DNA of 64,000 nt from Planctomycetota bacterium (lineage in GTDB: Bacteria; Planctomycetota; Phycisphaerae; Phycisphaerales; UBA1924): assembly GCA_038747915.1 (NCBI GenBank), contig JBCDJJ010000003.1, forward strand, positions 19,740 through 83,739. The letters are read 5' to 3'. The number at the start of each line of letters is the position of its first letter. Position 1 is the stretch's first letter. The notes beneath the pieces were generated by a model. The model ran no database searches and was not told where the DNA came from. It saw only the letters and a list, made by a program, of their open reading frames with translations. Shown in pieces: positions 25,663 to 58,596 of the stretch. The translations under genes and the position numbers were made by a program.

Positions 25663-25805
25663 TGCAGGCAGCGGAGCGCGGCGCCCCCCGCTTTGGGCGG
25701 GAGCCCCGCACAGCCGGATCATGATCGAGCCCGAAGTGAAGACGTTTGGATGAAGCGTCGCGGCGCCGCTCCACTTGTGCCGGTCCGCTGCCGATAACGG
25801 TCGCC

Positions 25806-26795: not shown

Positions 26796-26825
26796 GTCGA
26801 CGCGATCGCCCCAAGGACGCCTGGC

Positions 26826-27152: not shown

Positions 27153-27169
27153 ACACGAGAGCGAACCAC

Positions 27170-27487: not shown

Positions 27488-27536
27488 TGTGATTCATGAA
27501 CTGGCAGGTCACCCCAGCGAGTACGAGCGAGAACCG

Positions 27537-28364: not shown

Positions 28365-28594
28365 TGTTCATCGTCGACGACATCCTGTTCTCTCCCGCGA
28401 AGGGCTTCATGTGGATCATGCGCGAGCTGCACAAGGCGGCGAGTCAGGAGCTCGAGTCCGAGGCGGACCGCATTACAGCGGAGCTCTCGAGTCTGTACAT
28501 GCGGCTCGAGACCGGTGAGATCACCGAGGACGAGTTCGACGAGCGCGAGACCGAGCTGCTCGACCGCCTAGACGAGCTGCAGGCAGAGGAGTAG
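28364..28594 (+). CDS. gvpG: Gas vesicle protein GvpG
   Basis: MFIVDDILFSPAKGFMWIMRELHKAA. Its start overlaps the stop of gvpF (TGATG). Confidence 0.75.
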   Translation: MFIVDDILFSPAKGFMWIMRELHKAASQELESEADRITAELSSLYMRLETGEITEDEFDERETELLDRLDELQAEE

Positions 28595-28599
28595 GCACG

Positions 28600-30582: not shown

Positions 30583-30640
30583 CGAGCCGATAACCGCTAT
30601 CGATCGGTCCCGTGTTGTCGTCCTTTGGGAGTTCGTCTCG

Positions 30641-30874
30641 ATGCCGCGCACGCGTCTTCACCAAGTAGCTCGTTCGTCCGGGAGGGCGCGGTGTATCGAG
30701 CCGCAGGAGACGATCCTGTGCGACGCGCTTGACCGTGTGCTCAGTGTCGGTGTGGCGGCGCGTGGCGACCTCGTGATCGCTGTGGCGGATGTGCCGCTGA
30801 TCAAGCTGAGCCTGGGTGTGTTGCTGGCCTCGGTCGAGACCGCCGAGGGCCGGATCGAGAGGGGGACACGATGA
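30641..30874 (+). CDS. Small GvpA-family protein (GvpS/GvpM-like), not called in the ORF track as a separate gene
   Basis: 77 aa: ILCDALDRVLSVGVAARGDLVIAVADVPLIKLSLGVLLASVETAEG matches the GvpA/J/M/S core (LxxxLDRxLxxGVxxxGDxxIxxxxVxLxxLxLxxxxASVE). ATGA overlap with the gvpK start. Confidence 0.6.
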   Translation: MPRTRLHQVARSSGRARCIEPQETILCDALDRVLSVGVAARGDLVIAVADVPLIKLSLGVLLASVETAEGRIERGTR

Positions 30875-31218
30875 CCCGATGCCCGACCGAACTCGAACCG
30901 CTGCTCTCGGCGCTGGAAGACGTGACCGCGGTGGACGACTCCGAGGCGGATGCCTCGCCGCGGCTCAACGTCGACCCCGCGGATGTGAAAAAGGGGCTCG
31001 GTCAGCTCGTGCTGACCGTGGTCCGGCTGCTGCACGAGCTGCTCGAGCGTCAGGCGATCCGTCGGATCGAGTCGGGCTCGCTGACCGATGACGAGGCCGA
31101 CCGACTCGGCACGACGATGAAGCTCCAAGCCGAGGAGATCGAGAAGCTCGCCGGCTACTTCGGGCTGCGCACCGAAGATCTGAACATGGACCTCGGCCCC
31201 CTCGGCAAGTTGATGTAA
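30871..31218 (+). CDS. gvpK: Gas vesicle protein GvpK
   Basis: GLGQLVLTVVRLLHELLERQAIRRIESGSLTDDEADRLG. Confidence 0.85.
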   Translation: MTRCPTELEPLLSALEDVTAVDDSEADASPRLNVDPADVKKGLGQLVLTVVRLLHELLERQAIRRIESGSLTDDEADRLGTTMKLQAEEIEKLAGYFGLRTEDLNMDLGPLGKLM

Positions 31219-31228
31219 GGCGCGTGCG

Positions 31229-31621
31229 ATGGCGATTCAGCAGGGTGGCCCGACCCACCTGAGCACAACCAACATCGCGGACCTACTCGAGCGTGTGCTC
31301 GACAAGGGTGTGGTCATCGCGGGTGATGTCAAGCTCAAGCTGCTCGACATTGAACTTCTCACGATTCAGCTCCGTTTGGTGGTGTGCTCGGTCGACAAGG
31401 CGCAGCAGATGGGCATCGACTGGTGGTCGCAGACCAAATCGCTGTGCGCACCGGAGGAGACACCACCGATCGAGGCGGGTACAGAGGCCGAGACCAAGCC
31501 CGCGCTGCCGTCGCCCGAAGAGCACGAGGCGCTGCAGCAACGAGTGGAGGAGCTTCAACAGCAACTCGAGCAGATCCAAACCGAGCAGCAGACCCCCTGG
31601 CGGAGACCCAAGACCCCATGA
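31229..31621 (+). CDS. gvpJ: Gas vesicle protein GvpJ (GvpA family)
   Basis: LADLLERVLDKGVVIAGDVKLKLLDIELLTIQLRLVVCSVDKAQQMGIDWW. Confidence 0.85.
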   Translation: MAIQQGGPTHLSTTNIADLLERVLDKGVVIAGDVKLKLLDIELLTIQLRLVVCSVDKAQQMGIDWWSQTKSLCAPEETPPIEAGTEAETKPALPSPEEHEALQQRVEELQQQLEQIQTEQQTPWRRPKTP

Positions 31622-32247
31622 TCGCCCGTGAGGCGCCCGGAGAGCGCCGACTCGTTGTCATCCCGATGCTGCACACCGAGACGGACCTCGGCGAGCTATC
31701 AGACCGTGTTCGGCGTGAGACCGTCGCCCATGCCGGTCGACGAGCGTGGGAGCGCAAGCAGCGTGCGATCGAGCGGCTATGGAGCGAGATCACCGAATGG
31801 TCGGAGCGTGTTGCGATCCCTGAGGCCGGCATGCGGCTCTACCAGGATGGTCTGCCGGTCTGCGGACCGGGCGAGCGCGATGTCACGCGCACCATCGTGG
31901 AGGATCTCGGTACACGCGGGAGCCTGAACCATCGCATCCTGCTGAGTCTCATCGAGCGCGGGGCGACGCTCGAGGGCACCGAGTCGCCAGAGTTGCTGCT
32001 CGCCGAGTATCGCTTGGCCCGGGGCGAGGCGGAGCAGGATGGTGATGGCACCCCCGCTGCGCACGATCTGCTCGAGCAACGTGACCGGTTCATCGCGCAG
32101 CGCATCGATGCCACGCTCGAGCCTCACCAGGTCGGCGTGCTGTTCATCGGGTATTTGCACAACATCCCGCCGCACCTGCCCGCAGGCATCACGGTCGAGC
32201 ACCCCTTCGACGTTGCCGAGGCCCTCAGCCAAGGAGCACACGCATGA
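31618..32247 (+). CDS. Hypothetical gvp-cluster protein
   Basis: 209 aa, coupled by ATGA overlaps to gvpJ upstream and hsp20 downstream. No recognised motif. Confidence 0.5.
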   Translation: MIAREAPGERRLVVIPMLHTETDLGELSDRVRRETVAHAGRRAWERKQRAIERLWSEITEWSERVAIPEAGMRLYQDGLPVCGPGERDVTRTIVEDLGTRGSLNHRILLSLIERGATLEGTESPELLLAEYRLARGEAEQDGDGTPAAHDLLEQRDRFIAQRIDATLEPHQVGVLFIGYLHNIPPHLPAGITVEHPFDVAEALSQGAHA

Positions 32248-32780
32248 GCACCGCCAACACCCCACCCGGATCGTCCGGCCACCCGTCGGGCGGCCAGCCC
32301 GCAGGGTTCCTTGATGGTCTAACTCGGCTGCTTCACACGATCGGCGAGCTCGCGGACAAGGGTGCCGAGCTGAAAGAGTCCGGACTGTTCGAGACAGAGT
32401 CGGGCAAGCAGGGCCGCGTGAACGTCGGCTTCTCGATCCGCACCGCGGGGACCGGTCAACCGGGCGAGGGCGGGCTCAAGGTCGAGCCGTTTGGCAACGT
32501 GCGGCGCAACCGCGAGACGGGCGAGGCGGAACTCGCTGCGGTGCGCGAACCGATCGTCGATGTGTTCGACGAGGAGGGCGAAGCGCTGCGTGTGGTGGCC
32601 GAACTGCCCGGTATCGATGAGAGCCAGGTGACTCTCCGCGCCGATGGGCGCACGCTCGTGCTCGAGGCCGAGGATGGCTCGAAGCGCTACCACGCCGAGG
32701 TCGAGCTCCCCCGCGAGGTGCGCGTGGAGGAGGCATCGATCTCGTGCAATAACGGGATCGCGGAGATCACCTTTTCTTGA
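32244..32780 (+). CDS. Hsp20/alpha-crystallin family protein (GvpH-like position)
   Basis: ACD: ALRVVAELPGIDESQVTLRADGRTLVLEAE...YHAEVELPREV...GIAEITF. AAGGAG SD. Confidence 0.85.
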   Translation: MSTANTPPGSSGHPSGGQPAGFLDGLTRLLHTIGELADKGAELKESGLFETESGKQGRVNVGFSIRTAGTGQPGEGGLKVEPFGNVRRNRETGEAELAAVREPIVDVFDEEGEALRVVAELPGIDESQVTLRADGRTLVLEAEDGSKRYHAEVELPREVRVEEASISCNNGIAEITFS

Positions 32781-32816
32781 GCGTGTGGACCACGCCTGTA
32801 TCACGATGAGTCGGAG

Positions 32817-34979
32817 ATGCGCCGGATGATCCGCAAGAGCCCTCCCGCAGCCGAGCTGACCCGCCGGGTCGCCGAGGCCCAGCCGAAGGATGTTGGCCGC
32901 GCCATCGCGCGCCTCGATCCCTCGGATCTGCGTGAGCTCGGTCTCGCGACGGGCGACACCGTCGAGGTGGTCGGTGCGCGGACGACCGTGTGCCGAGCGC
33001 TGCCGACACGGAAGTCCGACCGGTCCGCCGGCTCGGTTCACATCGATGGGATGACGCGCGAGAACGCGCGCGTCGGTGTCGATGCGGAGGTGGCGATTCG
33101 GCCGGTGCCGTGCCCACGGGCCGAGCGTGTGGTTCTTGAGCCAGAGGCCCGCCGCCCCGATGGGAAGGAGCTGGCGTACATCGCATCGCTGCTCGATGGG
33201 CTGCCGGTTTCGTCTGGTGACCGCGTGCGGGTGAACACCTTCGGTAATCGCCCGATGCACTTCCGTGTGAAGCGCACGATGCCGGATACGGCGTGCGTCG
33301 TCGCCTCGAGCACCGCGCTGGAACTCGTGGGCGGGTCATCGAGTAGCAGCCGAGCGAAGCGGGACGCACCCGCTGCAACGCCGGCGAGCGTCTCGTACGA
33401 GGATGTCGGTGGTCTGGGCAAGCAGGTGCATCGCATCCGGGAGACGATCGAGCTCCCGCTGCGCTTCCCCGAGGTGTTCGATCGCTTGGGGATCGATCCG
33501 CCTAAGGGCGTGCTGCTGCACGGCCCGCCCGGGTGCGGCAAGACACTCATCGCCCGCGCGATCGCGCACGAGACCAATGCCAACTTCTTCGTGATCTCCG
33601 GGCCCGAGATCGTACACAAGCACTACGGCGAGTCGGAGGCCAATCTCCGCAAGGTGTGGGCCGAGGCGACGCGTCAGGGTCCATCGATCGTGTTCATCGA
33701 CGAGATCGACTCGATCGCGCCCAAGCGGGAGCAGACACAGGGCGAGGTGGAGAAGCGGATCGTCGCGACGCTTCTTACCTTGATGGACGGGCTCGAAGCC
33801 CGGCGGGGTGTTGTCGTGCTCGCTGCGACTAACCTGCCGAACAACCTCGACCCCGCCCTGCGGCGACCCGGGCGATTTGACCGGGAGATCGAGATCCCGG
33901 TGCCCGACGCGATCGGTCGTGGTGAGATCCTCGATGTGCATACGCGCGGCATGCCGCTCGCGGCCGATGTTGATCTGGATCGAGTCGCCCAGATTACACA
34001 CGGGTGCGTCGGGGCCGATCTCGAGTCACTGTGCCGTGAGGCAGCGATGCACTGTCTCCGCCAGATCATGGGGGAGATCGACTTCGTCACCGGTGATGTG
34101 CCCTACGAGAAGCTCGCCTCGCTCACGGTCTCGATGAACGATTTCGTGGCCGCGTTCGCCGAGGTCACGCCGAGCGCTCTGCGTGAGGTATTCGTCGAGA
34201 CACCGCGTGTGTCGTGGGACGATGTCGGCGGTCTCGAGGATGTAAAAGCCAAACTGGTTGAATCGGTCGACTGGCCCGTGCGGCACGCAGCACTCTTTGA
34301 AGAGGCGAAGCTCCGTCCACCCCGCGGTGTGATGCTCGCCGGCCCTCCGGGTGTGGGGAAGACGCTGATCGCCAAGGCCACCGCGAGCCAGCTCGGCGCC
34401 AACTTCATCTCGGTGAAAGGCCCGGAGCTGCTGTCGCAGTTTGTGGGCGAGTCGGAGCGAGCGATGCGCGAGGTGTTCCGAAAGGCGCGGCTGGCCTCGC
34501 CATGTGTGATTTTCCTTGACGAGGCGGATGCGCTGCTGCCTAAACGCTCCGGTTCAGCGACCGATGGCGGCGTGCGCGAGCGTGTGGCGGCTCAATTCCT
34601 CACGGAGATGGACGGCATCGAGGAGCTGCGCGGCGTGCTTGTGCTCGCGGCGACGAATCGGCTGGACATCATCGATCCTGCGGCGCTCCGGCCGGGACGG
34701 TTCGATCACGTGATCGAGCTCGGCCTGCCGACACCGGTCGATCGCGAACGCATCTTCGCGGTCCATCTGCGCGATCGCCCGACGGGCACGGCAGTCACAG
34801 CTGAAGTGCTGGCGGAGCTCGCCGGCGATGTGAGCGGAGCAGAGATCGCGGGTGTGTGCGACCGGGCCGCGATGCTCGCGGTGCGAGACAGCGTGTCGGG
34901 CGGTGCCCCGATCCGAATGACGCTCGAACACTTCCGGGGCGCAATGCGCGACATCCTCGGCGTGGAGATCGAATCATGA
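32817..34979 (+). CDS. CDC48/VAT-type AAA+ ATPase (N-domain plus D1 and D2)
   Basis: CDC48 N-domain TRRVAEAQPKDVGRAIARLDPSDLRELGLATGDTVEVVG. Two Walker A motifs, GPPGCGKTLIARAIAHE and GPPGVGKTLIAKATAS, plus two second-region-of-homology segments. Confidence 0.85.
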   Translation: MRRMIRKSPPAAELTRRVAEAQPKDVGRAIARLDPSDLRELGLATGDTVEVVGARTTVCRALPTRKSDRSAGSVHIDGMTRENARVGVDAEVAIRPVPCPRAERVVLEPEARRPDGKELAYIASLLDGLPVSSGDRVRVNTFGNRPMHFRVKRTMPDTACVVASSTALELVGGSSSSSRAKRDAPAATPASVSYEDVGGLGKQVHRIRETIELPLRFPEVFDRLGIDPPKGVLLHGPPGCGKTLIARAIAHETNANFFVISGPEIVHKHYGESEANLRKVWAEATRQGPSIVFIDEIDSIAPKREQTQGEVEKRIVATLLTLMDGLEARRGVVVLAATNLPNNLDPALRRPGRFDREIEIPVPDAIGRGEILDVHTRGMPLAADVDLDRVAQITHGCVGADLESLCREAAMHCLRQIMGEIDFVTGDVPYEKLASLTVSMNDFVAAFAEVTPSALREVFVETPRVSWDDVGGLEDVKAKLVESVDWPVRHAALFEEAKLRPPRGVMLAGPPGVGKTLIAKATASQLGANFISVKGPELLSQFVGESERAMREVFRKARLASPCVIFLDEADALLPKRSGSATDGGVRERVAAQFLTEMDGIEELRGVLVLAATNRLDIIDPAALRPGRFDHVIELGLPTPVDRERIFAVHLRDRPTGTAVTAEVLAELAGDVSGAEIAGVCDRAAMLAVRDSVSGGAPIRMTLEHFRGAMRDILGVEIES

Positions 34980-35806
34980 ACCAATCTGGTGGTCCTGCCG
35001 TCAAGTCGCGGTTTGCGGTCGAGCCCAAGCCGGAGTCGTCGCCGTCGCCTATCTACGCAGCGGCGCTGCTACCGCCGGATGCGCCCGCGATCGAGGCACC
35101 GGGGATCGAGCAAGGCCTGACGCTCCGCACGGTGGAGATCGGCGGGTGGTGTGCGTTTGCAGGTGTGGTTGGCCTCTCGATGTTCATGGGCGACGACGCC
35201 GAGCAACGGCTCCAAGACCCTGCGTGGCTCACCCCGCGTGCGATCGCGCACGAGCGGGCACTGCTCGAGGCCCGGACACACGTCGACCTGCTCCCGCTCC
35301 CATTCGGCACGGTGTTCCACTCGCTCGACTCGCTCGCAGACCGGTGCGATCGTCACGCCGAGGTACTCGCCGACTTCTTCGCCAGAACCTGCGGCGCCTC
35401 CGAATGGTGCATCAAGGTGACAGCGAGCCGGCGTGACGCGATCGAGCACGAGGTCGAGTCGCGTTTAAACCTCGAAGTCGGGGCCGAGGCGAGCGGCGCC
35501 GCGTACCTCCGCGCTCAGGCACGTCGCCGCGCGATCGAGACCGAGGTGCTCCACGATCTCTCGGCCTTCGCCGATGAACAGGCCGACCGGCTCGATGCGA
35601 TCGCTCGCGATAGCTCGGATCGGCGTCAGACATCGGGAGAGCCCGACATCGAGACACTCGCGCACTGGGCATTCCTTGTCGATCGCCGCGAGAGCGAGCG
35701 GGTGTCCGAGCTCACGCGAGAGATCAACCACGGTGCGCCCTCCGGCGTGCGTTTCGATCTCGCGGGCCCGTTCCCGCCGTACAGCTTCACCCCACGGTTG
35801 AGCTGA
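34976..35806 (+). CDS. Gas vesicle protein GvpF/GvpL family (second copy)
   Basis: WLTPRAIAHERALLEARTHVDLLPLPFGTVFHSL. ATGA overlap with the cdc48-like stop. Confidence 0.75.
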   Translation: MNQSGGPAVKSRFAVEPKPESSPSPIYAAALLPPDAPAIEAPGIEQGLTLRTVEIGGWCAFAGVVGLSMFMGDDAEQRLQDPAWLTPRAIAHERALLEARTHVDLLPLPFGTVFHSLDSLADRCDRHAEVLADFFARTCGASEWCIKVTASRRDAIEHEVESRLNLEVGAEASGAAYLRAQARRRAIETEVLHDLSAFADEQADRLDAIARDSSDRRQTSGEPDIETLAHWAFLVDRRESERVSELTREINHGAPSGVRFDLAGPFPPYSFTPRLS

Positions 35807-47147: not shown

Positions 47148-49106
47148 ATGTCCCAGGTTCGAACCGATCACCGTGGCACTTGGTGTTCTGCGGCCATGCT
47201 CGTGGCTCTTGCGGTCCTCGCACTGCCGGGCACACAGCTCGCCGGTGCGCACCAGCCACAAGGCCCGCCGATCTCGACCGACGGTGCGAAGGTCCAGGCC
47301 GAGTTCGAAGCCGGACTCCGGCTCGGCGCACGCGCCGCGAGCGTGCGCGCGCGGCTGGCCGTCGCGCCGATGGTCGTGATCGTGTCGGATCCGCGGACCT
47401 ACCTCGCGGTGCTCGAGCAGTGGTCGATCGAGCGACGGTTCCCCGTGCTGATCGACGATGGGACGATGGGCGCACGCGACGACATCGCCCGCTTCGTGCG
47501 CGCTTTCGAGCCCGAACGGGTTGTCCTGCATCCACCTGCTGGGATCGTCGATCGTCCGCTTCCCGATGCGGCCGAGCGGGTGATCCGCTCGGCCTGGAAC
47601 GGTGATGACGATACGACCACCCGCGAAGCGTGGAACACCGTCGGCCTCACACCCATGGGCATCGTGGTGGCGAGCGATGACGATCCCGCATGGACCGCAG
47701 CGATCGCCCTCGCCGCTGGACGCGGTCAGCCGATTGCCTGGGTTGGCGCCATCGGGACGTCACTCAACGGCTCGCTCCGCGAGGCGTCCATCGATCAACT
47801 CCGCACCGCCGCAACGCGCGCAGCGGACGCGCACGAACTCGCGTGGCAAGGCCTCGGCGACGATGTTGATGCCGTCACCCTGTGCCTCACGCTCCCCTCG
47901 GGCACGGGCGGCGGGCCGCTCGCCCTCACCGATGTGCTGCCACGGCACGAATCGGGCGATCGATGGGCGTTCGCGGGGCTCATCGCCGGTTCCGAGGCCG
48001 AGGCGGCTTATGACGCGATGTGCGCGCTCTTCCTGCGCGCCGAGCGCGCCTGGATGTTCGATGGGTACCCGGCTTCCTTTGCGGCGCCGTATCAGCTCGG
48101 CGGTGTCGAGTCGGTGTTCGATCAACTCAAGATCGACGCCCAGGTCTTCCCATCCTCTTCGGCCGACCGGTGGCGCGCGCTCACGCGGCGTGGTGTTGAT
48201 GCCGGGCTGATCCACGTGAACACCAGGGGGCAGTCCACCTGGTTCGACCTCGAGCCCGGCCGGCTGACATCCGATGAGCTACCGATGCTGCGTCGGCCCG
48301 CTGCGGTGCATTTCATCCACTCGTTCTCCGCGCGATCGATGGGCGATCGCCGCACGCTCGGTCGGCGATGGCTCGACGCGGGCGCGTTCTCGTACACGGG
48401 TTCGGTGCACGAGCCGCTGCTGTCGGCCTTCGTGCCGGCCGAGGTGCTGGTCCGGCGACTCGGCGGAGGCATGCCGATCGGCGCCGCCATGCGGATCGAC
48501 GGCGCGGGTGCCTGGAAGATCAACCTGTTTGGTGACCCGCTCTGGATGTTGGTCGGCCCGCACCCGGGGCGCGCGGAAGTCGATGCCAGGCTGGATGGGG
48601 TGCCGAGCGCCGATGCGGTGTTCGCCGATGCCCTTCGAGGCCAGGACTTCGCGCGTGCTGCACGCCTGCTCGTCATGCTTGGCCGCGACGATGATGTCAC
48701 GCAGCTCGTGACCGCGATCGATGTTGATGAGAACACCGTGGTTTCGCCCGAGCTGGCCGTAGAGGCATTCGGCGCCGCGGTGCGCACGGGCCGGGGAGAG
48801 CTCGCGGCATCGCTCTTCGAGCGCATGCCCCCAGACTCCCAGCGTGAACCGGGCGTCGCCGCGATGCTGTGGACCGCGCTCGCGGATGAGTTCCGACCCG
48901 GCGGCGATGCGACCATGCTCGCGCTCATGAGCGCCCACGTGCCCGATGCCGACCTCCCGATGAATGCCAAGCGACTCGAGCCGCACCTCCGGCGGGCGCT
49001 CGGCGGCGCGGCGGTCCGCGCGATGTACGAGCGACTGATCGAGCAGACGGAGTCGGAGGGCCTCCGGGCTCGTCTCCGCCGCGCCGCGGGGATCAACGAG
49101 CCGTGA
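47148..49106 (+). CDS. Hypothetical secreted protein
   Basis: Signal peptide WCSAAMLVALAVLALPGTQLAGA. 652 aa. No recognised domain. Confidence 0.45.
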   Translation: MSQVRTDHRGTWCSAAMLVALAVLALPGTQLAGAHQPQGPPISTDGAKVQAEFEAGLRLGARAASVRARLAVAPMVVIVSDPRTYLAVLEQWSIERRFPVLIDDGTMGARDDIARFVRAFEPERVVLHPPAGIVDRPLPDAAERVIRSAWNGDDDTTTREAWNTVGLTPMGIVVASDDDPAWTAAIALAAGRGQPIAWVGAIGTSLNGSLREASIDQLRTAATRAADAHELAWQGLGDDVDAVTLCLTLPSGTGGGPLALTDVLPRHESGDRWAFAGLIAGSEAEAAYDAMCALFLRAERAWMFDGYPASFAAPYQLGGVESVFDQLKIDAQVFPSSSADRWRALTRRGVDAGLIHVNTRGQSTWFDLEPGRLTSDELPMLRRPAAVHFIHSFSARSMGDRRTLGRRWLDAGAFSYTGSVHEPLLSAFVPAEVLVRRLGGGMPIGAAMRIDGAGAWKINLFGDPLWMLVGPHPGRAEVDARLDGVPSADAVFADALRGQDFARAARLLVMLGRDDDVTQLVTAIDVDENTVVSPELAVEAFGAAVRTGRGELAASLFERMPPDSQREPGVAAMLWTALADEFRPGGDATMLALMSAHVPDADLPMNAKRLEPHLRRALGGAAVRAMYERLIEQTESEGLRARLRRAAGINEP

Positions 49107-49350
49107 CCGAGGTGGTGTCCCACCGGCTCGATGCCTTGGTCGGTGCATGGCGGGTCGAGCGACGCACCCCCCAGGGCATCATCGCGTGCGGAGCCGCACA
49201 GGTTGTCGTGTCGCCGACCGATCCGAGCACACTCGACTACACGGAGTCAGGTCAGCGTACGGACAGCACTTCCACGCTCGGGTACACACGTCGATACCAC
49301 ATCACCCCGGCTGATTCGGTCAGCGCTGCGTGCCCCCCGAGGTGCCGTGG

Positions 49351-49441
49351 TCTGGAGGATGCCGAAGGCATCCGAAGGCCACGCGAGAGCGGGGGCACTC
49401 AAGACGTATCGCGGCCCTCGCTTCGCTTAGACCACAGCACC
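49351..49441. repeat. Conserved intergenic structured element, copy A (palindrome GGATGCC-GAA-GGCATCC plus a distal conserved box)
   Basis: 37-nt block TCTGGAGGATGCCGAAGGCATCCGAAGGCYACGCGA is identical to copy B at 56981. A variable ~40-nt middle separates it from a shared distal block TYAGACCACRGCACC. Confidence 0.5.
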
Positions 49442-49760: not shown

Positions 49761-50678
49761 TCAGGGAAGAATGACCGAGTCGATCACGTGCACCACGCCG
49801 TTGGCGGCCTCGATGTCGGTGCTCAGGATGGACGCACCGCCGATGGTTGCCCCGGCGTTCGAGACGGAGACCGGCGCAGAGAAGCCCGAGGCGGTGGTCA
49901 CGGTTCTGAGATGCACGACCTGGTCCGCGTATACGCGACCGGGCACCACGTGCGCCTTGAGAATGCTCTCGAGCGTCTGACGGTTCTGCGGCTTGAGCAG
50001 ATCCTCCACGGTACCAGCGGGCAGCTTCGCGAACGCAGCATCGGTCGGCGCGAACACGGTGTACGGCTCGTCGCCGGTGAGCACCGGGGCAAGGCCCGCT
50101 GCGCCGGCCGCTGCGAGCAGCGTCGAGAACTGCCCCGCGTCGGTCGCGACCTCGACGATGTTCCGCTGCTCGGGCAGCAGCACCGTATCGATCACGTGGA
50201 CCACGCCGTTCGAGGCCTCGATATCCACCGCGGTCACGCGCGCATTGTCGATCGCGACACCGGCCGAGCCGCCAGCGGCGATGTCGACCCGCTGGCCGTT
50301 CACCGTCGTCGCGTTCGAGAGCTCAACCACCTGCTTCGCCTTCACCGTCTGCGGCACCACGTGGTAGGTCAGGATCGCCTTGAGCTGATCGTGGTTCTCC
50401 GGCCTCAGCAGGTTCTCCACGGTGCCCGCGGGGAGCTTGGCGAACGCAGCATTGGTCGGCGCGAAGACGGTGAACGATCCCTCACCGTCGAGCACGGAGT
50501 CCAGACCCGCGGTCTGCAGCGCGGTCACGAGCGTGGAGAAGTTCGGATCGCCCGCTGCGATCGAGGTGATCGAGGGGATCGAATGCGCGGAAGACGATGA
50601 CGATGTGCCGCACCCGTGAGCGAGCGCGAAGGGGGCGCTCGCTGAGAGCGCAGCAACAACAACGAGGGACTTCAACAT
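49761..50678 (-). CDS. Fasciclin (FAS1) domain protein, two FAS1 repeats, secreted
   Basis: FTVFAPTNAAFAKLPAGTVENLL and YTVFAPTDAAFAKLPAGTVEDLL. Signal peptide. Confidence 0.8.
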   Translation of the reverse strand: MLKSLVVVAALSASAPFALAHGCGTSSSSSAHSIPSITSIAAGDPNFSTLVTALQTAGLDSVLDGEGSFTVFAPTNAAFAKLPAGTVENLLRPENHDQLKAILTYHVVPQTVKAKQVVELSNATTVNGQRVDIAAGGSAGVAIDNARVTAVDIEASNGVVHVIDTVLLPEQRNIVEVATDAGQFSTLLAAAGAAGLAPVLTGDEPYTVFAPTDAAFAKLPAGTVEDLLKPQNRQTLESILKAHVVPGRVYADQVVHLRTVTTASGFSAPVSVSNAGATIGGASILSTDIEAANGVVHVIDSVILP

Positions 50679-50858: not shown

Positions 50859-53800
50859 CTACTGCGTCAGCACCCAGTACGACGCATCGACCGCACCAAC
50901 ACGGGTGTTCTCGGTGCCCCGAGGGAGCAGACCCGAGGCCGAGTACGGGCGATCCCCACGGTTCACCACGACGACGACCCGATCGCCGTTGAGCGCACGT
51001 TCGAAGGCGAACACATCGTCACGGCCCGTATCAAGGTGCCGCACCGACCCGAACCGCAGGATCGGTCCGAGCGTCTCGTCGCGACGGAGCGTGAACCACT
51101 CGGCGTACCGCTCGTACCACCCAGGAATGTGGTTGTCGTCGGGGTTCTCCATCGCGCCGAGCTCGGGCCACGGTGTGGGCTTGCGGTCGGTCGGGTCATC
51201 GGCGCCCCACGCCCCGAGCTCGTCGGCGTAGTAGATCATCGGGGCGCCCAGGTAGGTCGCCTGGATCGCGATGCCGAGCACCGAGAGTTCGAAGTGGGCT
51301 TCGGTGGGTCGTGAGCCGTCGTAGTGCGGCCCGTTGTCCTGCGGGCGGTTGCCCTGGTCGTAATCGCGCCCGGGGTTGAAGAGCTGGCTCACCCACCGAT
51401 CGGTGTCGTGGCTTGCGAAGAGGTTTTGGTGGATGAGGTTGATCTCGGCAGCATCATCGAACGCTTCGGTCTCCAGGCGGCGCGCCAGGTCGTAGCTGGT
51501 GGTGCCCGGCCGGATACCGAGCCAGTCGCCGAAGGCCATCGCGAAGGGGTAGTGCATGTGAGTGTCGAAGTGGATGCCCGAGTTGATCACCGGGTCGGCC
51601 TCATGGTCGGACCAGATCTCCGCGATAATCACCGCGTCGTGGTTGATGCTCTTGACGAGTCTCCGCCAGTCCTCCCAGAACGGCAGGCCGATGTCGAGCG
51701 GCACATCGAGCCGCCACCCGTCGATGCCGTCGGACGGATCGCCATCGTTGTTCGGATCCATCCACCGCCGCGTGACCGCGAAGATGTGGTCCTTCACCTC
51801 GGGTACCAGGTCGCCCGTCGCGGTCTGCTTGAACTTGGGCAGCCACCCGTCCGGACCATCCCACGCGCGCCAGGACTCGAGCGCACCACTCTGCTCGTTG
51901 TATTCGGCGTAGAACCAGTCGGCGTAGGGCGACCGGTTGCCCTTCTCGATGATGTCCTGCCACGCCCAGAACTCGCGGCCGGTGTGGTTCCACACACCGT
52001 CGATCACCACACGGATGCCGTGCGCACGGGCAGCGGGCAAGAACTCGTCGATGAAGTACCGGTCAGCGGGTGTCCACCCCCACGTGCTCGGGTCCGCTGG
52101 GTTTTCGCCCTCGGGGTACTCAAAGACCGGCCCGACTCGGCCGGCAGTCGCGGGCGTGCCGAAATTGTCGTCGATGTGGTGGTAGGCCGTGGCGTCGTAC
52201 TTGTGCATCGAGTCGCCCTCGAACACCGGGTTGAAGTAGATCGCCGTCACGCCGAGGTCTTTGAGGTAGCCCAGCTTCTCCTGCACGCCCTGCAGGTCGC
52301 CGCCGTACCGGCGATCCCACACCACGTGGTAGAGATCACCGCCCTGGCGCTCCGGCATCGGGTGTCCGAGCGGCGTGCCCGTGCGCTCGTGCCAGGCGGT
52401 TCGCTCGTCGTTGTCGATCGAGTACCAGTCGGCGGCCCACTCCTCGAAGAAGATGGACGGCCGGCTCGGATCGTTGAGCGGGTTCCCGTTGCGGAACCGC
52501 TCCGCGAAGATCTGATACCACACCGCGCCCTTCGCCCAGTCTGGCAGATCGATCCCGGGCTCGAGCGGCGCCGTGAACCAGTCGGTCGTGAACGATGCGT
52601 CGCCGTCCTTCAGCTCGAAGCGGTAGGTCACACCGCCAGGGGCATCGCGCGGCATGTCGAGCATCGCGCGCGCACGCCACCGGTCGAAACCGTCCGCTGT
52701 GTGATCCTGGTGCAACGGCACACGGATCGTCTCGGGCTCCGACCGGGCGGTCCCGGGGAACGCGACGAGCGTGATCGACTCCACATCGCCCGAGAGCGTG
52801 GTGATGGCGGCATCAAAGAGACCGAGCCCATCGGAGACCGCCGTGAAGTCGCCGGGCAGGTCCGGCGTGTGGCGCACGCCCGCACCGTTGATGTGACCCG
52901 GCGCGGCCGGCCCAAGCTCTTCGGCGGTCGGCCCAGCGATCACGACGGATCGGTCGGATGCCGGGTCGGCGATCCGCCGGCTGCCGTCGATCAAGAAGCC
53001 GTACTCGAACGTCCCGGGCGGCAGGTCGACAATCGCGCGGTACGTGCCGTCGATGTCGGGCAGCATCGGGATCGCGCGATCCGAGGTGGGTGGCGCCCAC
53101 GCGTTGAAATCACCGATCAGGTGGACCGTCTCGGGGAGCGGCTGGCCGTGGTCGCGGGGTGTGTAGGTGAAGCGTCGCCAGTGGCCAGCATGAAGGATCC
53201 CGTCCTCGCTCGTCCGGACGAGCGCACCGTCGCGCACTTGAATGACGTGCTCACCGCGGGGCACGTCGACCGGCTCGCCTTCCATAACGGTTCGATCGTC
53301 CAGAGCGAACGTGACCCGGGCGGTCGCGGGCGTGAGCGCGGACACAAGTGCCCGAAACACGCCGTCACCCTGGTGCTCGAAATCAGAGAACGAGACGGTG
53401 CGCGGAGCGACCGCGGAGAGCTGGTGCGCTTCGTAGATGCGAAGCATGCCCGTGACCGACCCAATGGTCCCTTCACGAGGCATGGTGCCGCTTTGGCCTT
53501 CCCACAGCCCGAGTTCCCAGTCCAGCAGTGTGCCACCTCGGGTGGCTTCGATGTGAAGCTGCCCAGCCGATTGATCGAACGCAATCGCTGTCTCTTGGAA
53601 GTCGCAGGCCTGCTCGACCACAGTTGAGGCATCCGTGTCATCGGTTGGAACCACGATGTTGGAGGTGCATGACACACCGGGTCGATCCGGGAAGCGAGTC
53701 GTGAGCTGCGCGCGCACGCCAGCGTTCTCGACGCCGGAGTTGGTCAAGCTTTGCGTGTAATCGATGACGAATGGCTGTCCAGCAGATGGCGTGCCGAGGA

Positions 53801-54230
53801 CCCGCGCCACAACGAAGGGCTTGTCGATCGACGCCACCACACGCGACCACCGCGCGTCGTTGACATCCAGCTCGATGCGGAGCTTCGCGAGCGCCGGTAC
53901 ATCGAGCAGAATGTCACCGCCCGGCTGAACGAGCGAACCATCGCCCGCGTCACCGAGATGACCTGCGCCCCAGTCGCCGTTGCGCACAAATTTAAAGCGG
54001 TGCTCGCCGGGCGGCACGATCCGCTCCAGGCCGAACCGGCCCGTGTGCCCCTGCACCGGCGTCATCTCCCAGTCGACATCCACGGTATTCCACCCGTTGA
54101 AGGTGCCGGCGAGCCGCCAGATCGACTGGGCGACCGCGCCCGGCGCCGACGCGACCGTGAACAGCGCCGCGATGCACGCAAAGACAGCAGCGAGACGCCG
54201 CTCGGATAGAAAGCGACCACAGTGGGGCAT
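50859..54230 (-). CDS. Glycoside hydrolase family 13 (alpha-amylase/pullulanase-like) multi-domain secreted enzyme
   Basis: GH13 regions LKDLGVTAIYFNPVF, GIRVVIDGVWNHTG and IDGWRLDVPLDI. Signal peptide. 1123 aa. Confidence 0.8.
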   Translation of the reverse strand: MPHCGRFLSERRLAAVFACIAALFTVASAPGAVAQSIWRLAGTFNGWNTVDVDWEMTPVQGHTGRFGLERIVPPGEHRFKFVRNGDWGAGHLGDAGDGSLVQPGGDILLDVPALAKLRIELDVNDARWSRVVASIDKPFVVARVLGTPSAGQPFVIDYTQSLTNSGVENAGVRAQLTTRFPDRPGVSCTSNIVVPTDDTDASTVVEQACDFQETAIAFDQSAGQLHIEATRGGTLLDWELGLWEGQSGTMPREGTIGSVTGMLRIYEAHQLSAVAPRTVSFSDFEHQGDGVFRALVSALTPATARVTFALDDRTVMEGEPVDVPRGEHVIQVRDGALVRTSEDGILHAGHWRRFTYTPRDHGQPLPETVHLIGDFNAWAPPTSDRAIPMLPDIDGTYRAIVDLPPGTFEYGFLIDGSRRIADPASDRSVVIAGPTAEELGPAAPGHINGAGVRHTPDLPGDFTAVSDGLGLFDAAITTLSGDVESITLVAFPGTARSEPETIRVPLHQDHTADGFDRWRARAMLDMPRDAPGGVTYRFELKDGDASFTTDWFTAPLEPGIDLPDWAKGAVWYQIFAERFRNGNPLNDPSRPSIFFEEWAADWYSIDNDERTAWHERTGTPLGHPMPERQGGDLYHVVWDRRYGGDLQGVQEKLGYLKDLGVTAIYFNPVFEGDSMHKYDATAYHHIDDNFGTPATAGRVGPVFEYPEGENPADPSTWGWTPADRYFIDEFLPAARAHGIRVVIDGVWNHTGREFWAWQDIIEKGNRSPYADWFYAEYNEQSGALESWRAWDGPDGWLPKFKQTATGDLVPEVKDHIFAVTRRWMDPNNDGDPSDGIDGWRLDVPLDIGLPFWEDWRRLVKSINHDAVIIAEIWSDHEADPVINSGIHFDTHMHYPFAMAFGDWLGIRPGTTSYDLARRLETEAFDDAAEINLIHQNLFASHDTDRWVSQLFNPGRDYDQGNRPQDNGPHYDGSRPTEAHFELSVLGIAIQATYLGAPMIYYADELGAWGADDPTDRKPTPWPELGAMENPDDNHIPGWYERYAEWFTLRRDETLGPILRFGSVRHLDTGRDDVFAFERALNGDRVVVVVNRGDRPYSASGLLPRGTENTRVGAVDASYWVLTQ

Positions 54231-54314
54231 GGTGATGCTCCTTTGGGAAAGTCGTGACCTCTTGCTCTCTCGAACGCCGGAACGAGCCGGCGGCGAGTTG
54301 TGTTCGCCCTGACT

Positions 54315-55361
54315 CTAGCCTTCAACCGGCCTGCAGGACTCGCGCGGCACCAGCGAGACGTCGACCACCTCGCTGATCCGCTGACCCGAGGCGAACTCGA
54401 GCTTCTTCTCGACGATGTCGATCATCTGCCGGGCCGCGACCGCGCCGACGTCGAAGAAGTTCATCCGGATGGTCGTGAGTGGCGGATCCGCGAGTGGGGC
54501 GGTGGCGATGTCGTCGCACCCGAGCACGGAGACATCCACACCCGGTTTCAACCCACGTTCACGCAGGGATTGGTACACGCCGAGGGCCATCTTGTCGTTC
54601 GCCGCGAAGATCGCGGTGAGCTTGGGATCGCGCTCCAGCAGCTCATCGGCCGCAAGCTTGCCCGTCTCGGCTTGCAGCTGCCCGTCGACGATCATCGAAG
54701 AACTCGTCGCTACCCCGTGCTCCTTGAGCGTCTCCACGAACGCCGCGGTGAGCTCAGCAGAGGTGAGCACGACATCGCGCGGCCCGGACACGTGCCCGAT
54801 GCGGTGGTGCCCGAGTTCGATCAGGTAGCTCGCTGCGAGTTGACCCGCGCCGCTGTAGTCACAGACCACATGGTGCAGGTCGAGTTTCTCGAGCCGGTTG
54901 TTGACGAGGATGAGCGGCCGGTCAGACTCGGCAAAGTCCTCGAGCCACTCGTGCTCCGCGGTCGCACCCACGAAGAGGATCGCATCAACCGCGTTCTCCT
55001 CGACGATCGTGAGGTACTCCTTGCGGCGGATGTAGTCCCGCCGGGCGACCTCGAGGAGGATGCGGTAGCCCCGGTCCGCAGCGGACTCGTAGATCCCGGA
55101 GATGATCTCGCCGAAGTAGGCATCCGCGAACGCGTGCTGCAGAGCGGGCACCAGCACCGCGAGTGTGTTGGCACGCCGGTTGGGCAAGCCGCGCGCCAAT
55201 CGGGACGGTGTGTAGTGCAGCTTCTCGATGGCGGCCCGCACACGCTGACGTGTCGGCTCACTGATCCGCTGATCGTTGCCATTGATGACCAGCGAGACCG
55301 TGGTGAGGCTCACGCCAGACTCGCGGGCGACGTCTCGGATGTTGGCGCGTCGCTTGCCCAT
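54315..55361 (-). CDS. LacI family transcriptional regulator
   Basis: MGKRRANIRDVARESGVSLTTVSLVING HTH. Start chosen at the internal Met. Confidence 0.75.
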   Translation of the reverse strand: MGKRRANIRDVARESGVSLTTVSLVINGNDQRISEPTRQRVRAAIEKLHYTPSRLARGLPNRRANTLAVLVPALQHAFADAYFGEIISGIYESAADRGYRILLEVARRDYIRRKEYLTIVEENAVDAILFVGATAEHEWLEDFAESDRPLILVNNRLEKLDLHHVVCDYSGAGQLAASYLIELGHHRIGHVSGPRDVVLTSAELTAAFVETLKEHGVATSSSMIVDGQLQAETGKLAADELLERDPKLTAIFAANDKMALGVYQSLRERGLKPGVDVSVLGCDDIATAPLADPPLTTIRMNFFDVGAVAARQMIDIVEKKLEFASGQRISEVVDVSLVPRESCRPVEG

Positions 55362-55657
55362 AGGGGGGGATTTCCGGCGGCGGTCGGAGGGTGGGGGAGC
55401 TGGAGAAGCCATCAGAGTAGGTCCTCTGTCGTGATTGTGTGCGCGTGGGGTGTCTGTTTGGCAGAAGGGATGGAATTTTTCGTCGACGAAAGTCATTAAA
55501 ACGCTTGATCAGACCGATATGGAAGCTAGAATTGTAAAGCGTTTTACTCTGTAGTACGACGCGACGTGTTCTCCGGTTGCCCTCGAGCAAGACAAATCGT
55601 GAAGACGAGGCCAGCGAGCCGGTCCACGACCGGTCGCCTCTGAATTGGAGCTGCGCT

Positions 55658-56779
55658 ATGACCACGCCCATTCGCTCGAACGCACGCACCCGAGTCCAGA
55701 CATTCGGGTTCACCCTTATTGAACTGCTTGTCGTGGTCGCGGTGATCGCGCTGCTCATCGGTCTCCTGCTTCCCGCGCTCGGCCAGGCCCGGAGCGCTGC
55801 GTTCAAGGCCGTGACCCAGGGCAACCTGCGGCAGCTGGTGATCAACATGAACCTCTACGCCGGCGACAACGACGAGGCGTACCCGACGCTGCCACCGCCC
55901 TCGTCGGTCAACAGCGATCTGATCATCACGCACTGGAACACGCCGGCCCGCTCCCGTCCAGGCCCCACCGGCGATGGCACCGGGTGGGAGACGTTCGCCA
56001 CGGGCGATGGGTCCGCTGGTCAGCAGCCCGGCATGGCCGGCTACGGTGGATTCGCCGGGTTCTTCTCGCTCAAACAGCGCAGCGAGGTGAACACCGGTCT
56101 GGTCGACGACGCAGCCGAGGACGGTCAGATGGTCGTCTACACCGGCTTCGACGGCCCGGTTGCCGAGACCGAGGTTCGCGACAGCGACCCGCTCATGCGG
56201 CCGTACATGCCGGACCTGGCAGCACACGAGATCTTGCAGTCCCCCGCGGACGTGATCGACGGTGAAGTCTCGACCGCTGCGGATGCCAGTGATCGGAACC
56301 AGCAGGCGGTCCGCGTCCGCAGCATCGGCGACCTCTCCTACGCCAACACCCTGACCTTCGATGATCCGAACGACGGCCCGTCCTGGGAGAACAACGTCGT
56401 CTGGCACAACATCAGCTTCCTCTTCATCGCCGGACTCAACCGTAGCTCCGCGGGCTCCCTGGCATTCATCGGTGATGAGTCCAACTGGAACGACATCGGT
56501 GGCGGCAGCTACGCGACGGATCTTGGCACGCTCCGTCACAACGCCGGCAATGTGTCGGGCGCGGAAGACATCGAGCCCGGCTACTCCGAGGATGACAACT
56601 TCGGAGCTCAGGGCGGCCACTTCGCCTACACAGATGGCAGTGTCGTCTTCCTCCGCCAGGAATCAAAGCGCAACGCCCTCGGTGATGTGGTTGTCTACCC
56701 CCACGAAGAGGTCTTCATCGAAGAGATCAACCGCCGCAAGCGTCCTGGCGGGACGACCACGGTGCAGACGATCGACTGA
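55658..56779 (+). CDS. DUF1559/H-X9-DG protein with prepilin-type N-terminal domain
   Basis: [32 protein letters not shown], and C-terminal HFAYTDGSV. GGAG SD. Confidence 0.75.
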   Translation: MTTPIRSNARTRVQTFGFTLIELLVVVAVIALLIGLLLPALGQARSAAFKAVTQGNLRQLVINMNLYAGDNDEAYPTLPPPSSVNSDLIITHWNTPARSRPGPTGDGTGWETFATGDGSAGQQPGMAGYGGFAGFFSLKQRSEVNTGLVDDAAEDGQMVVYTGFDGPVAETEVRDSDPLMRPYMPDLAAHEILQSPADVIDGEVSTAADASDRNQQAVRVRSIGDLSYANTLTFDDPNDGPSWENNVVWHNISFLFIAGLNRSSAGSLAFIGDESNWNDIGGGSYATDLGTLRHNAGNVSGAEDIEPGYSEDDNFGAQGGHFAYTDGSVVFLRQESKRNALGDVVVYPHEEVFIEEINRRKRPGGTTTVQTID

Positions 56780-56980
56780 GCAATACACCTCGGTCGAGGT
56801 CGACTCACCGGTCTGAGTCGTCATAGACCAACCTGCTTGAACGAGCAGGAGAACACGCGGCGTTCGGCCTCACCGGGCGGAACGCCGTTTTTCATTGGAG
56901 TGTCTGTCTCCTACCGGATGATGGCATCAGGTCAGTGCGCGATCCAGATGGTCGAGCACCGTGCGTGTTTGATCTCGTCG

Positions 56981-57073
56981 TCTGGAGGATGCCGAAGGCA
57001 TCCGAAGGCTACGCGAATGCTGCTCGTCTTGCTGTGCGCTGTATGCCCTTCGCGTGGCTCAGACCACGGCACC
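56981..57073. repeat. Conserved intergenic structured element, copy B
   Basis: Same 37-nt block and distal box as copy A. Sits in the convergent gap between the 55658..56779 and 57265..58596 genes. Confidence 0.5.
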
Positions 57074-57264
57074 GAGCGCGAACATGATCCAGCAGACGTT
57101 CTAGCGCAGACCACGTCAACTTGTCTCGCCAATCAGTGGCGTGATCAGCCGACTCCTGGGCTTGGGTGCCACTGGCGGCTTGCCCGCCAGTGTTCAAGGA
57201 CTTCGATGTTCGCACTGGTGGGCAAGCCACCAGTGGCACCCGCAACGAATTGACTTGGAACGCG

Positions 57265-58596
57265 CTAGTTGTCTCCGCACACACTCCCGAAGGCGACTAA
57301 GACGCTGAAGAAGTCGCTCACGCCGACGAACCCATCGCCGTCGAGGTCGGCGCCGTCGTTGGGCGGCTCTGCTGGCGAGCCGAAGGCGACCAGCATCATG
57401 AGGAAGTCTTCCGCATCGACAAAGAGATCGCCGTTTGTGTCGCCGGGGCAACGCGGCCCGAGACTCGGCGTGCGGTTGAGCGCCGGATAGGCCTGGAGCG
57501 CGGTCGAGGTCGTTGCGATGAAGTCCGGCAGGCCATCCGCGTCGAGGTCCGGCAACGACACATCGAAGGTGCGCTCGGGTGTTGTGACCTCTTGAACAAC
57601 CAGCCCATCCTCGGCATTGCGAAGCAGTGTGTACCCTTCCTCACCCGCCAGACTCACCACCAGGTCGGGGCGGGTGTCTTGGTCGAGGTCGACAACGCGC
57701 ACTCGTGTCGGCTGCTGGCCGACGAATGGGCGGCCCTGTGAGATGAGTGCGCCATTCTCATCGGCATCGAAACGCTCGATCGAGCCGGCAGAGTTGAGTG
57801 TCACCACGAGATCGTCCCGCGCATCGCGCGAGAGGTCCGTCGCCATCAGGTGCCGCGGTCGTCGTCCCGTTGCGAGCGACTGTGACTCGCTCGTGAACAC
57901 GCCGGCGCCATCACCGAGCCAGATCGACACTCGATCCGTCAGCTCGCTCGAGATCGCGAGGTCATTCACCTCGTCGCGGTCGAAGTCGCCGATCGCGATG
58001 CCAGCGGGTGTGATCACGCCGGTGATGGTCGGCTCGAGAGCCAGCGTGCCGGTGCCGTCGTTGAAGGCGATCGCGAAGCCGGCGAGGTCGATCAGCGTGA
58101 CCGCCAGATCGATCGACCCGTCGCCGTCGAGGTCGCCCGCAGCGATCGCGGTAGGCACGCCGGGCAGCTGAATCTGCTGAATGAAAAGGAGGGTGTCCGC
58201 CTCGGTCCGCTCGAGAATCATGATCCGCTTGCCCGCGGCTGTGATGACGACCAATTCGGACTGCCCGTCACCATCCACGTCGGCGGCGATCGCAGCGGTC
58301 GGCATCGCGCCGAGGGCGAGCGATGGAAGTACCGACACGCCCCCGGAGCCCGTCGCCAGCATCGGCCCCACCGCAGAGAGCGATGGGTGCATCACGGCGA
58401 CCAGGTCCGGCCGGCCCGGGGCCACGAGCACGGGCGCATCGCCGCCCGGCGCGAGCGTGTTGATGTTCGGCTGATGGACGAGGGTGAACGGGTCCTGTGC
58501 GCACACGATCGCGCTGCCGAGACAAGCGGCGAGCACCAGGCACACCAGGATGCGAGCCTTGGGGCGTTCCACGCGCGGCTCTCCTCCGCGCGACAA
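57265..58596 (-). CDS. FG-GAP/VCBS repeat secreted protein with a C-terminal dockerin-like Asp-rich segment
   Basis: Signal peptide. Repeated DxDGDG motifs (DVDGDGQSELVV, DLDGDGSIDLAV). C-terminus DTNGDLFVDAEDF...DLDGDGFVGVSDF. Confidence 0.6.
   Translation of the reverse strand: MSRGGEPRVERPKARILVCLVLAACLGSAIVCAQDPFTLVHQPNINTLAPGGDAPVLVAPGRPDLVAVMHPSLSAVGPMLATGSGGVSVLPSLALGAMPTAAIAADVDGDGQSELVVITAAGKRIMILERTEADTLLFIQQIQLPGVPTAIAAGDLDGDGSIDLAVTLIDLAGFAIAFNDGTGTLALEPTITGVITPAGIAIGDFDRDEVNDLAISSELTDRVSIWLGDGAGVFTSESQSLATGRRPRHLMATDLSRDARDDLVVTLNSAGSIERFDADENGALISQGRPFVGQQPTRVRVVDLDQDTRPDLVVSLAGEEGYTLLRNAEDGLVVQEVTTPERTFDVSLPDLDADGLPDFIATTSTALQAYPALNRTPSLGPRCPGDTNGDLFVDAEDFLMMLVAFGSPAEPPNDGADLDGDGFVGVSDFFSVLVAFGSVCGDN

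Follow-up and report, generated by a model that had tools for sequence, protein, structure and literature searches.

A repeated intergenic element with terminal inverted repeats and a variable interior in a planctomycete genome

The window analyzed in this work, a 64-kb stretch of a planctomycete genome, contains two copies of a short structured element which is bounded by terminal inverted repeats and lies in gaps between convergent genes. The explanation that we favor, with a probability of about one half, is that the element is a dispersed repeat of the MITE/REP type, specific to the lineage of its host, an uncultured planctomycete related to the Phycisphaerae. Most likely it represents a new family of the general MITE/REP kind, neither a member of a named family nor a new kind of system. 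The inverted-repeat ends, the location in convergent-gene gaps, the implied presence of more than two copies and the mosaic intergenic context argue for this assignment. The element is placed outside the named families because target-site duplications around the two copies and a parent IS in the sequences searched were not found, and because it does not conform to the tagged-palindrome definition of REP sequences. Two copies are directly visible, and a third one is deduced from assembly breaks.

The orfs of the window (G+C content of 65%) match exactly the NCBI proteins MEM1164800-850 of a Planctomycetota bacterium MAG (locus tags AAGI30_, contig of 83.7 kb). A reading of the DNA made from the sequence alone (referred to below as the sequence-only reading) had drawn attention to a two-copy conserved block with a palindrome and had interpreted it as a structured sRNA, a REP-like element or a protein-binding site. 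That interpretation is partly supported by the present analysis: the REP-like option fits best, and the discrete sRNA has gained no positive support.

Sequence and predicted fold of the element

The palindrome GGATGCC-GAA-GGCATCC, the core of the block described previously, is exact at two sites only in 64 kb. With up to three mismatches allowed (<=3) five matches have been found in 64 kb, i.e. each of the two sites read on both strands, plus a site at position 3644 with three mismatches, against 0.35 expected, and 0/100 shuffles reached five. The palindrome is embedded in a 5' block, CGTsGTCTGGAGGATGCCGAAGGCATCCGAAGGCyACGCGA, which occurs at 49346-49386 and 56976-57016 with 39/41 identical positions (blastn E = 9e-14). 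The blastn score and the shuffling result bear out the earlier statement that the similarity is not a matter of chance. The strict identity over 37 nt claimed for this block does not hold, as the longest exact run common to both copies is 30 nt (49350-49379), followed by a C/T difference, which the sequence-only reading had written as Y, and then by ACGCGA; the block as such stands, over a length of 41 nt. Within the conserved 5' module the motif CCGAAGGC forms a direct repeat, occurring twice, 10 nt apart.

The 3' modules (49413-49441 and 57045-57073) are identical in 23 of 29 positions and include the distal box AGACCACrGCACC at 49429-49441 and 57061-57073. The middle parts (49387-49412 and 57017-57044) match in approximately 7 of 28 aligned columns, which corresponds to the random level, and their local alignment is not significant either in the direct (p = 0.5) or in the reverse-complement orientation (p = 0.07). 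The idea of a flip/flop relation, in which one P3 tip would be the inversion of the other, was rejected on the latter value. The switch from identity to random-level similarity is sharp and falls at 49386/49387. The layout proposed previously, with a conserved hairpin, a variable middle and a conserved distal box, is likewise confirmed. Both copies have the same orientation and form direct repeats about 7.6 kb apart. Their similarity ends at the end of the right repeat (49441/57073). On the upstream side a weak extra similarity (CCGGmTGAT..GGTCAGyGC; local alignment p ~0.02) has been detected between 49286-49333 and 56907-56942, at differing distances from the element, and could represent either a preferred insertion context or an older, decayed homology.

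The terminal inverted repeats were absent from the earlier description of the element. The left 14 nt of copy 1 (49341-49354, GGTGCCGTGGTCTG) are the perfect reverse complement of the right box of copy 2 (57060-57073, CAGACCACGGCACC), and it is from this correspondence that the element is seen to be bounded by inverted repeats. Each copy has one decayed arm, which is the right one in copy 1 (TAGACCACAGCACC) and the left one in copy 2, where the outer 5 nt are decayed (GATCTCGTCGTCTG). Of the 14 positions in the arms, 13 can pair in copy 1, one of them as G.U, and 11 can pair in copy 2. No target-site duplication was found around copy 1 (flanks ...GCCCCCCGA / TGTGCAAGG...) or around copy 2 (flanks ...GCGTGTTT / GAGCGCGAA...). 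An additional partial right-repeat box downstream of copy 2 (CAGACCACGTCAAC) may be a solo-end remnant. The coordinates of all these features are collected in Table 1.

Table 1 Coordinates of the element, its parts and adjacent features in the 64-kb window
Feature	Position	Strand	Description
Copy 1 of the element	49341..49441	+	101 nt, from left to right terminal inverted repeat
Copy 2 of the element	56971..57073	+	103 nt
Conserved 5' module, copy 1	49341..49386	+	46 nt: left repeat + GA + P2 + GAAGGCyACGCGA
Left terminal inverted repeat, copy 1	49341..49354	+	GGTGCCGTGGTCTG, 5' strand of P1, 14 nt
P2 hairpin, copy 1	49357..49373	+	perfect 7-3-7, GGATGCC-GAA-GGCATCC
P2 hairpin, copy 2	56987..57003	+	7/7 pairs identical to copy 1
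Variable P3 tip, copy 1	49387..49412	+	unrelated to the tip of copy 2
Variable P3 tip, copy 2	57017..57044	+	28 nt vs 26 nt in copy 1
Conserved 3' module, copy 1	49413..49441	+	29 nt: 3' strand of the P3 base + right inverted repeat
Right terminal inverted repeat, copy 1	49428..49441	+	TAGACCACAGCACC, 2 differences from consensus
Right terminal inverted repeat, copy 2	57060..57073	+	CAGACCACGGCACC, intact, 14 nt
Extra partial right-repeat box	57107..57120	+	CAGACCACGTCAAC, 46 nt downstream of copy 2; 2 mismatches to the repeat on the - strand
Intrinsic terminator of the prepilin-type gene	56857-56894		GCGGCGUUC...GAACGCCGUUUUU / GCGGCGUUC...GAACGCCG + U5; -25 kcal/mol, z = -4.6

For the + strand RNA of both copies the same Y-shaped three-way fold is predicted, composed of the stems P1, P2 and P3. 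In P1 the terminal repeats pair with each other, P2 corresponds to the perfect hairpin of 7 bp capped by a GAA loop, and P3 consists of a conserved base of 11 pairs (GGCyACGCGAr / yTCGCkTkGCT) and a tip that is not conserved. The predicted energy of the fold is -54.5 kcal/mol (z = -5.4) for copy 1 and -43.0 kcal/mol (z = -2.35) for copy 2. In the two-copy alignment 90.6% of the cells pair in the Y fold, as compared with 28-39% after the 3' partners have been shifted by 1-3 columns. One compensatory pair was observed (G-C vs A-U, columns 47/79), which is statistically uninformative with two sequences, since 254 of 500 shuffles equal the result. Five G.U pairs, which become C.A mismatches on the other strand, favor folding of the + strand, so that copy 2 folds better as the + strand (-51.5 vs -41.1 kcal/mol for the - strand); for copy 1 the relation is the reverse (-62.7 kcal/mol for the - strand vs -57.3 kcal/mol for the + strand). 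The G.U pairs of the predicted structures are a hint of selection at the level of the single strand, not of the DNA duplex, and in this respect speak against a dispersed repeat.

An ATG within P2 (GGAGGATGCC) opens short orfs in both copies: 49360-49431, starting with MPKASEGHARAG... (23 aa), and 56990-57088, starting with MPKASEGYANAA... (32 aa). Their translation is unlikely, as no spacer separates GGAGG from the ATG and the two tails show no relationship. Orfs crossing the element run in different frames in copy 1 and copy 2, so the peptides shared between them are by-products of the repeat, as the sequence-only reading had supposed in calling them spurious.

Implied further copy and search for relatives

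The Logan assembly of SRR22824304 contains the same organism, and its contigs are derived from a k = 31 de Bruijn graph. In Logan contigs each 31-mer occurs once (PMC12424806). Two of the contigs terminate inside copy 1. Contig L076, which carries the upstream gene, ends at 49370, i.e. 29 nt past the repeat start at 49341, and its last 30 nt, GGTGCCGTGGTCTGGAGGATGCCGAAGGCA, start exactly at the left terminal repeat. Contig L026, which carries the fasciclin gene, starts at 49357, i.e. 29 nt before 49386; its initial 30 nt run precisely to 49386, where conservation ceases and the variable tip follows. The two ends therefore indicate that the 31-mers 49341-49371 and 49356-49386 occur in a second context. 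Copy 2 cannot cause these breaks because it differs from copy 1 at 49349, at 49380 and in the outer repeat, so that the exact run shared by the copies is only 30 nt and no 31-mer is common to them. Elsewhere this low-coverage assembly is interrupted roughly once per 3 kb, and at this density the probability that two breaks would fall by chance at both predicted nucleotides is ~1e-7. At least one more locus with a 46-nt 5' module identical to that of copy 1, with another left flank and with another continuation after 49386, is thus implied in SRR22824304. The end of L076 also sets the left boundary of the element at the repeat start, 49341. The sequence-only reading had counted a lack of additional copies against its own proposal; the contig ends imply that a further copy exists.

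The contigs of the organism in SRR22824304 (L026, L076, L077, L078 and L079) are only 2.5-7.5 kb long. Their breaks are located in unique genes (e.g. between 52064 and 52215, in the amylase gene), at the tRNA-Thr gene (61383) and at the repeat, and L079, which carries the last gene, ends inside the window. In L076 the Logan gene caller has annotated a spurious partial orf of 89 aa (7261-7527) which extends into copy 1.

No relative of the element has been detected elsewhere. At the gathering threshold Rfam yielded two tRNAs only in the whole window and no match at the element to any family, Y RNA included. At E <= 10 the surroundings of the copies gave only C/D-box snoRNA noise of 13-19 bits (the archaeal model ~18 bits), while gathering scores amount to 40-100. 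ARAGORN reported no tRNA or tmRNA at the element, and a tRNA-like nature of the latter was rejected on the results of both programs. A covariance model built from the two copies and run on the window with the filters off scored 110.8 bits for copy 1 and 111.9 bits for copy 2. Only these two known copies were retrieved when the window and four other loci were scanned, the latter being the nearest-relative loci L074 and L075 and two chance loci from Planctomycetota.

A pattern allowing any P2 stem was searched in 185,579 species genomes (one genome for each species, the host MAG not being among these) and retrieved 25 loci, none of them with a complementary stem or a distal box; they are therefore considered chance matches. 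A three-box pattern with variable gaps gave 0 matches in IMG/VR and 47 in JGI metagenomes, all of them chance matches and most in a coding-like context. A full-text literature search for the palindrome string yielded no match.

The flanking proteins are similarly isolated. The best homologs of the upstream 652-aa protein, from Phycisphaerae MAGs, are <=45% identical, and for every flanking protein the 90% cluster comprises the host MAG and one Logan sample only. In GCA_942490855, the best relative with a long contig, the ortholog of the 652-aa protein is followed directly by a rotamase gene, with no gap and no element, and in the relative L074 the gene order is kept up to the 622-aa ortholog and is different thereafter. 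As far as these sequence comparisons reach, the element is most likely lineage-specific, with no detectable relative elsewhere.

Genomic setting of the two copies

Both copies lie in convergent (3'-3') gaps about 7.6 kb apart, as had been described, and no CDS is annotated in either gap, since the NCBI protein accessions are consecutive over both of them (840 to 841 and 844 to 845). The gap with copy 1 (654 nt) separates a conserved hypothetical gene, 47148-49106(+), from the fasciclin gene, 49761-50678(-). The gap with copy 2 (485 nt) separates the prepilin-type gene, 55658-56779(+), from the FG-GAP/dockerin gene, 57265-58572(-). The fasciclin, alpha-amylase, LacI and prepilin genes form the block enclosed between the two copies.

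The prepilin-type gene has its own intrinsic terminator (Table 1), located between its stop codon and copy 2, 77 nt upstream of the latter; copy 2 is therefore not the terminator of that gene. This terminator also documents that the host planctomycete uses standard rho-independent terminators. At the element itself a scan found no U-tract terminator, the sequence after P2 being GAAGGC (+ strand) or UCCAGACC (- strand), and an intrinsic terminator was accordingly rejected as an explanation of the element. Upstream of the two copies, no sigma-70-like promoter was detected. A Pfam search of the 64-kb window revealed no transposase, integrase, reverse transcriptase, RAYT or Cas domain.

The gap with copy 2 is a mosaic of structured pieces comprising the element, the box at 57107-57120 and a 78-nt hairpin. 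Mosaic intergenic regions in which different repeat families are interleaved have been described for REP-type repeats (PMC3733652). The 78-nt hairpin (57164-57241) is situated just past the 3' end of the FG-GAP gene and has 29-nt arms with 93% complementarity (-64 to -69 kcal/mol, z -8 to -9). Its termini, GGTGCC.../...GGCACC, equal the outer hexamer of the inverted repeats of the element. The Logan contig L077 ends at 57214, within this hairpin, which may be another repeat family; alternatively, the end of L077 may reflect a coverage dropout.

Comparison with known systems and competing explanations

Bacterial MITEs such as Correia/NEMIS of Neisseria, RUP of pneumococci, ERIC of enterobacteria and Nezha of cyanobacteria resemble the element in being ~100 bp long, non-coding and equipped with terminal inverted repeats. 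They are likewise intergenic, located especially at gene 3' ends, and adopt a stable fold when transcribed, as predicted for the element. With its 101-103 nt the element falls within the size range of MITEs (<300 bp, non-coding), its 14-nt arms correspond to their terminal inverted repeats, and more than two copies of it are implied by the contig ends. Two features of MITEs are missing: target-site duplications flank neither copy, and the window, the GTDB species genomes, the JGI metagenomes and IMG/VR yielded no parent IS and no transposase sharing the ends of the element. The interiors of MITEs are homogeneous, whereas that of the element is wholly different between the copies from a sharp common boundary onwards. 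MITE families usually amplify from one deletion derivative, which makes the boundary at 49386/49387 unusual for a MITE; it fits a designed variable module at least as well.

REP and REPIN sequences are GTAG- or CGTC-tagged imperfect palindromes of 20-40 bp with the tag unpaired, the CGTC families having a stem of 8-9 bp and a loop of 4-5 nt, and REP families have been reported in the PVC superphylum (Di Nocera et al. 2013, PMC3733652). The element shares with them the short perfect palindrome core, the location in convergent gaps and a gap in which structured pieces are mixed. Its palindrome, however, has 17 nt and no adjacent GTAG or CGTC, the sequence CGTC being found 7 nt upstream of the stem in copy 2 and CGTG in copy 1. 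The stem of 7 bp with a 3-nt loop also departs from the dimensions of the CGTC families, and the element is a three-helix unit of 100 nt rather than a hairpin or a hairpin dimer. No gene for a RAYT (Y1 transposase) is present in the 64-kb window.

Several other systems were considered and rejected. Integron attC sites are similar in their complementary conserved ends, variable centre and single-strand fold, and in that the structure of the middle part is better conserved than its sequence. Yet neither R''/L'' and L'/R' boxes nor a GTTRRRY core were found at either end of the element. Only ~7-nt boxes are conserved in attC, while the element has an identical 46-nt stretch and an extra internal perfect hairpin; moreover, attC sites adjoin short cassettes and intI, whereas the element adjoins ordinary chromosomal genes. 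The attC reading was rejected on the lack of the GTTRRRY core, cassettes and intI at the element, and a dif site on its defining features; we take the element to be unlike the consensus of either.

The likeness to the hammerhead ribozyme is superficial. The order P1 - GA - P2 - GAA - P3 - P1 recalls stem I - CUGANGA - stem II - GAAA - stem III, but the core reads CUGGA in place of CUGANGA, G replaces A15.1 and no Rfam hammerhead match was obtained at E <= 10, hence its rejection. A retron msr-msd, in which a1/a2 inverted repeats enclose msr/msd next to a reverse transcriptase gene, was rejected because, although the outer stem is present, no reverse transcriptase domain is encoded in the neighboring orfs or in the other orfs of the window.

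If the element is a dispersed repeat, its copies would be spread or exchanged by a trans-acting transposase or recombinase that recognizes the ends and is not encoded in the window, and they would persist between convergent genes, where insertions are least harmful. The single + strand, either as read-through RNA or as DNA during replication or transposition, would fold into the Y-shaped three-way junction, and in RNA this fold could incidentally serve as a 3' stability or processing structure. Mobility is thus a property that we infer, as is any effect at the RNA level, be it stabilization, processing or control of 3'-end read-through.

The main rival of the dispersed repeat is a structured RNA, which we consider possible though hardly the probable answer. 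The element would then act as RNA made from the + strand, either as a family of sRNA genes or as a 3'-end element working in cis; it would be Y-shaped, with P2 and the junction forming an invariant handle that binds a protein or another RNA, and with the P3 tip carrying information specific for each copy. The common fold with z = -5.4 and -2.35, the 90.6% pairing against 28-39% after sliding, and the conserved P3 base with its compensatory pair speak for it, as do the better folding of the + strand in copy 2 (-51.5 vs -41.1 kcal/mol), the same orientation of the copies and the identical 5' module sharply delimited from a tip that is free to vary. Against it, the - strand folds better in copy 1 (-62.7 vs -57.3 kcal/mol), and with two sequences the observed covariation score is reached by 254/500 shuffles. 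Rfam offers nothing at the element even at E <= 10 beyond the archaeal C/D-box noise of ~18 bits, and the covariance model has no match in the nearest-relative loci. Neither a sigma-70-like promoter near the copies nor a terminator after the element was found, and copy 2 is located behind a canonical terminator, so that it would be transcribed by read-through only. For a discrete structured sRNA in particular, as envisaged by the sequence-only reading, the missing Rfam match, promoter and U-tract at the element, together with a single compensatory pair, are unfavorable.

A binding or recombination site in duplex DNA and a decayed duplication are both less likely than a structured RNA or a dispersed repeat. 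As a DNA site, the 17-bp palindrome or the CCGAAGGC direct repeat (10-bp spacing) would serve as the target of a dimeric regulator, a nucleoid protein or a site-specific recombinase, and the two direct copies could delimit the 7.6-kb fasciclin / alpha-amylase / LacI / prepilin block as a recombination unit; we regard this as improbable. The palindrome is indeed perfect and identical in both copies, and the direct repeats bracket a sugar-utilization-like block with a LacI regulator, which is variable inasmuch as the gene order in L074 differs after the 622-aa ortholog. But both copies are placed at gene 3' ends and not in promoter regions, no integrase or recombinase is encoded in the 7.6 kb, and the conservation (46 + 29 nt plus the inverted ends) exceeds that of a binding site. 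The absence of dif/attC likeness and of a GTTRRRY core from the copies weighs in the same direction, and the implied further copy does not fit a single att-like pair. It is just as doubtful that the copies are a functionless relic, i.e. an old local duplication of ~100-170 bp which has decayed while gene conversion re-homogenized the 41-nt block. Such an origin would agree with the two directly visible copies, 7.6 kb apart in the same orientation, and with the weak extra upstream similarity (p ~0.02). It is contradicted by the Logan contig ends, which call for a further locus bearing the block in its copy-1 variant, by the conservation of the 3' module, which lies apart from the supposed conversion tract, and by the coincidence of the conserved and variable parts with the structural modules and the inverted-repeat ends.

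An unlikely but more far-reaching explanation is that the copies belong to a previously undescribed family of Y-shaped RNA or DNA elements folding as single strands, in which a constant 46-nt handle together with a conserved closing stem exposes a hypervariable tip of ~27 nt. By analogy with attC sites or guide-RNA scaffolds, and with the same low probability, such elements might be programmable or cassette-like and used by a recombinase or an RNA-binding protein in Phycisphaerae-like planctomycetes. This explanation is kept alive by the sharp boundary at 49386/49387 between the copies, which is implied again by the Logan break. If the repeat were confirmed genome-wide, the layout of an identical handle with an unrelated tip would merit a closer look for an RNA- or recombination-based function.

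On the present evidence the element is an ordinary lineage-restricted intergenic repeat which opens no long-standing question. If confirmed genome-wide, it would join the small number of short dispersed repeat families described so far in Planctomycetota, here in a Phycisphaerae-like lineage, and as a marker could help to recognize assembly breaks, to type strains and to follow genome plasticity in these bacteria.

Two other features of the window are recorded here. The region ~25700-35800 contains a gas-vesicle cluster with two GvpL/GvpF proteins, a GvpH-like protein, an AAA_5 ATPase, an ArsA-like ATPase and a CDC48-type AAA+ ATPase, which is notable for a Phycisphaerae-like MAG. The regions 7730-16050 and 50859-56779 are similarly organized, each with LacI (-), a glycoside hydrolase (-), which is either GH16+CBM6 or an alpha-amylase family enzyme, and a prepilin-type/DUF1559 protein (+), and the prepilin N-termini of the two loci display 76% DNA identity over 86 nt.
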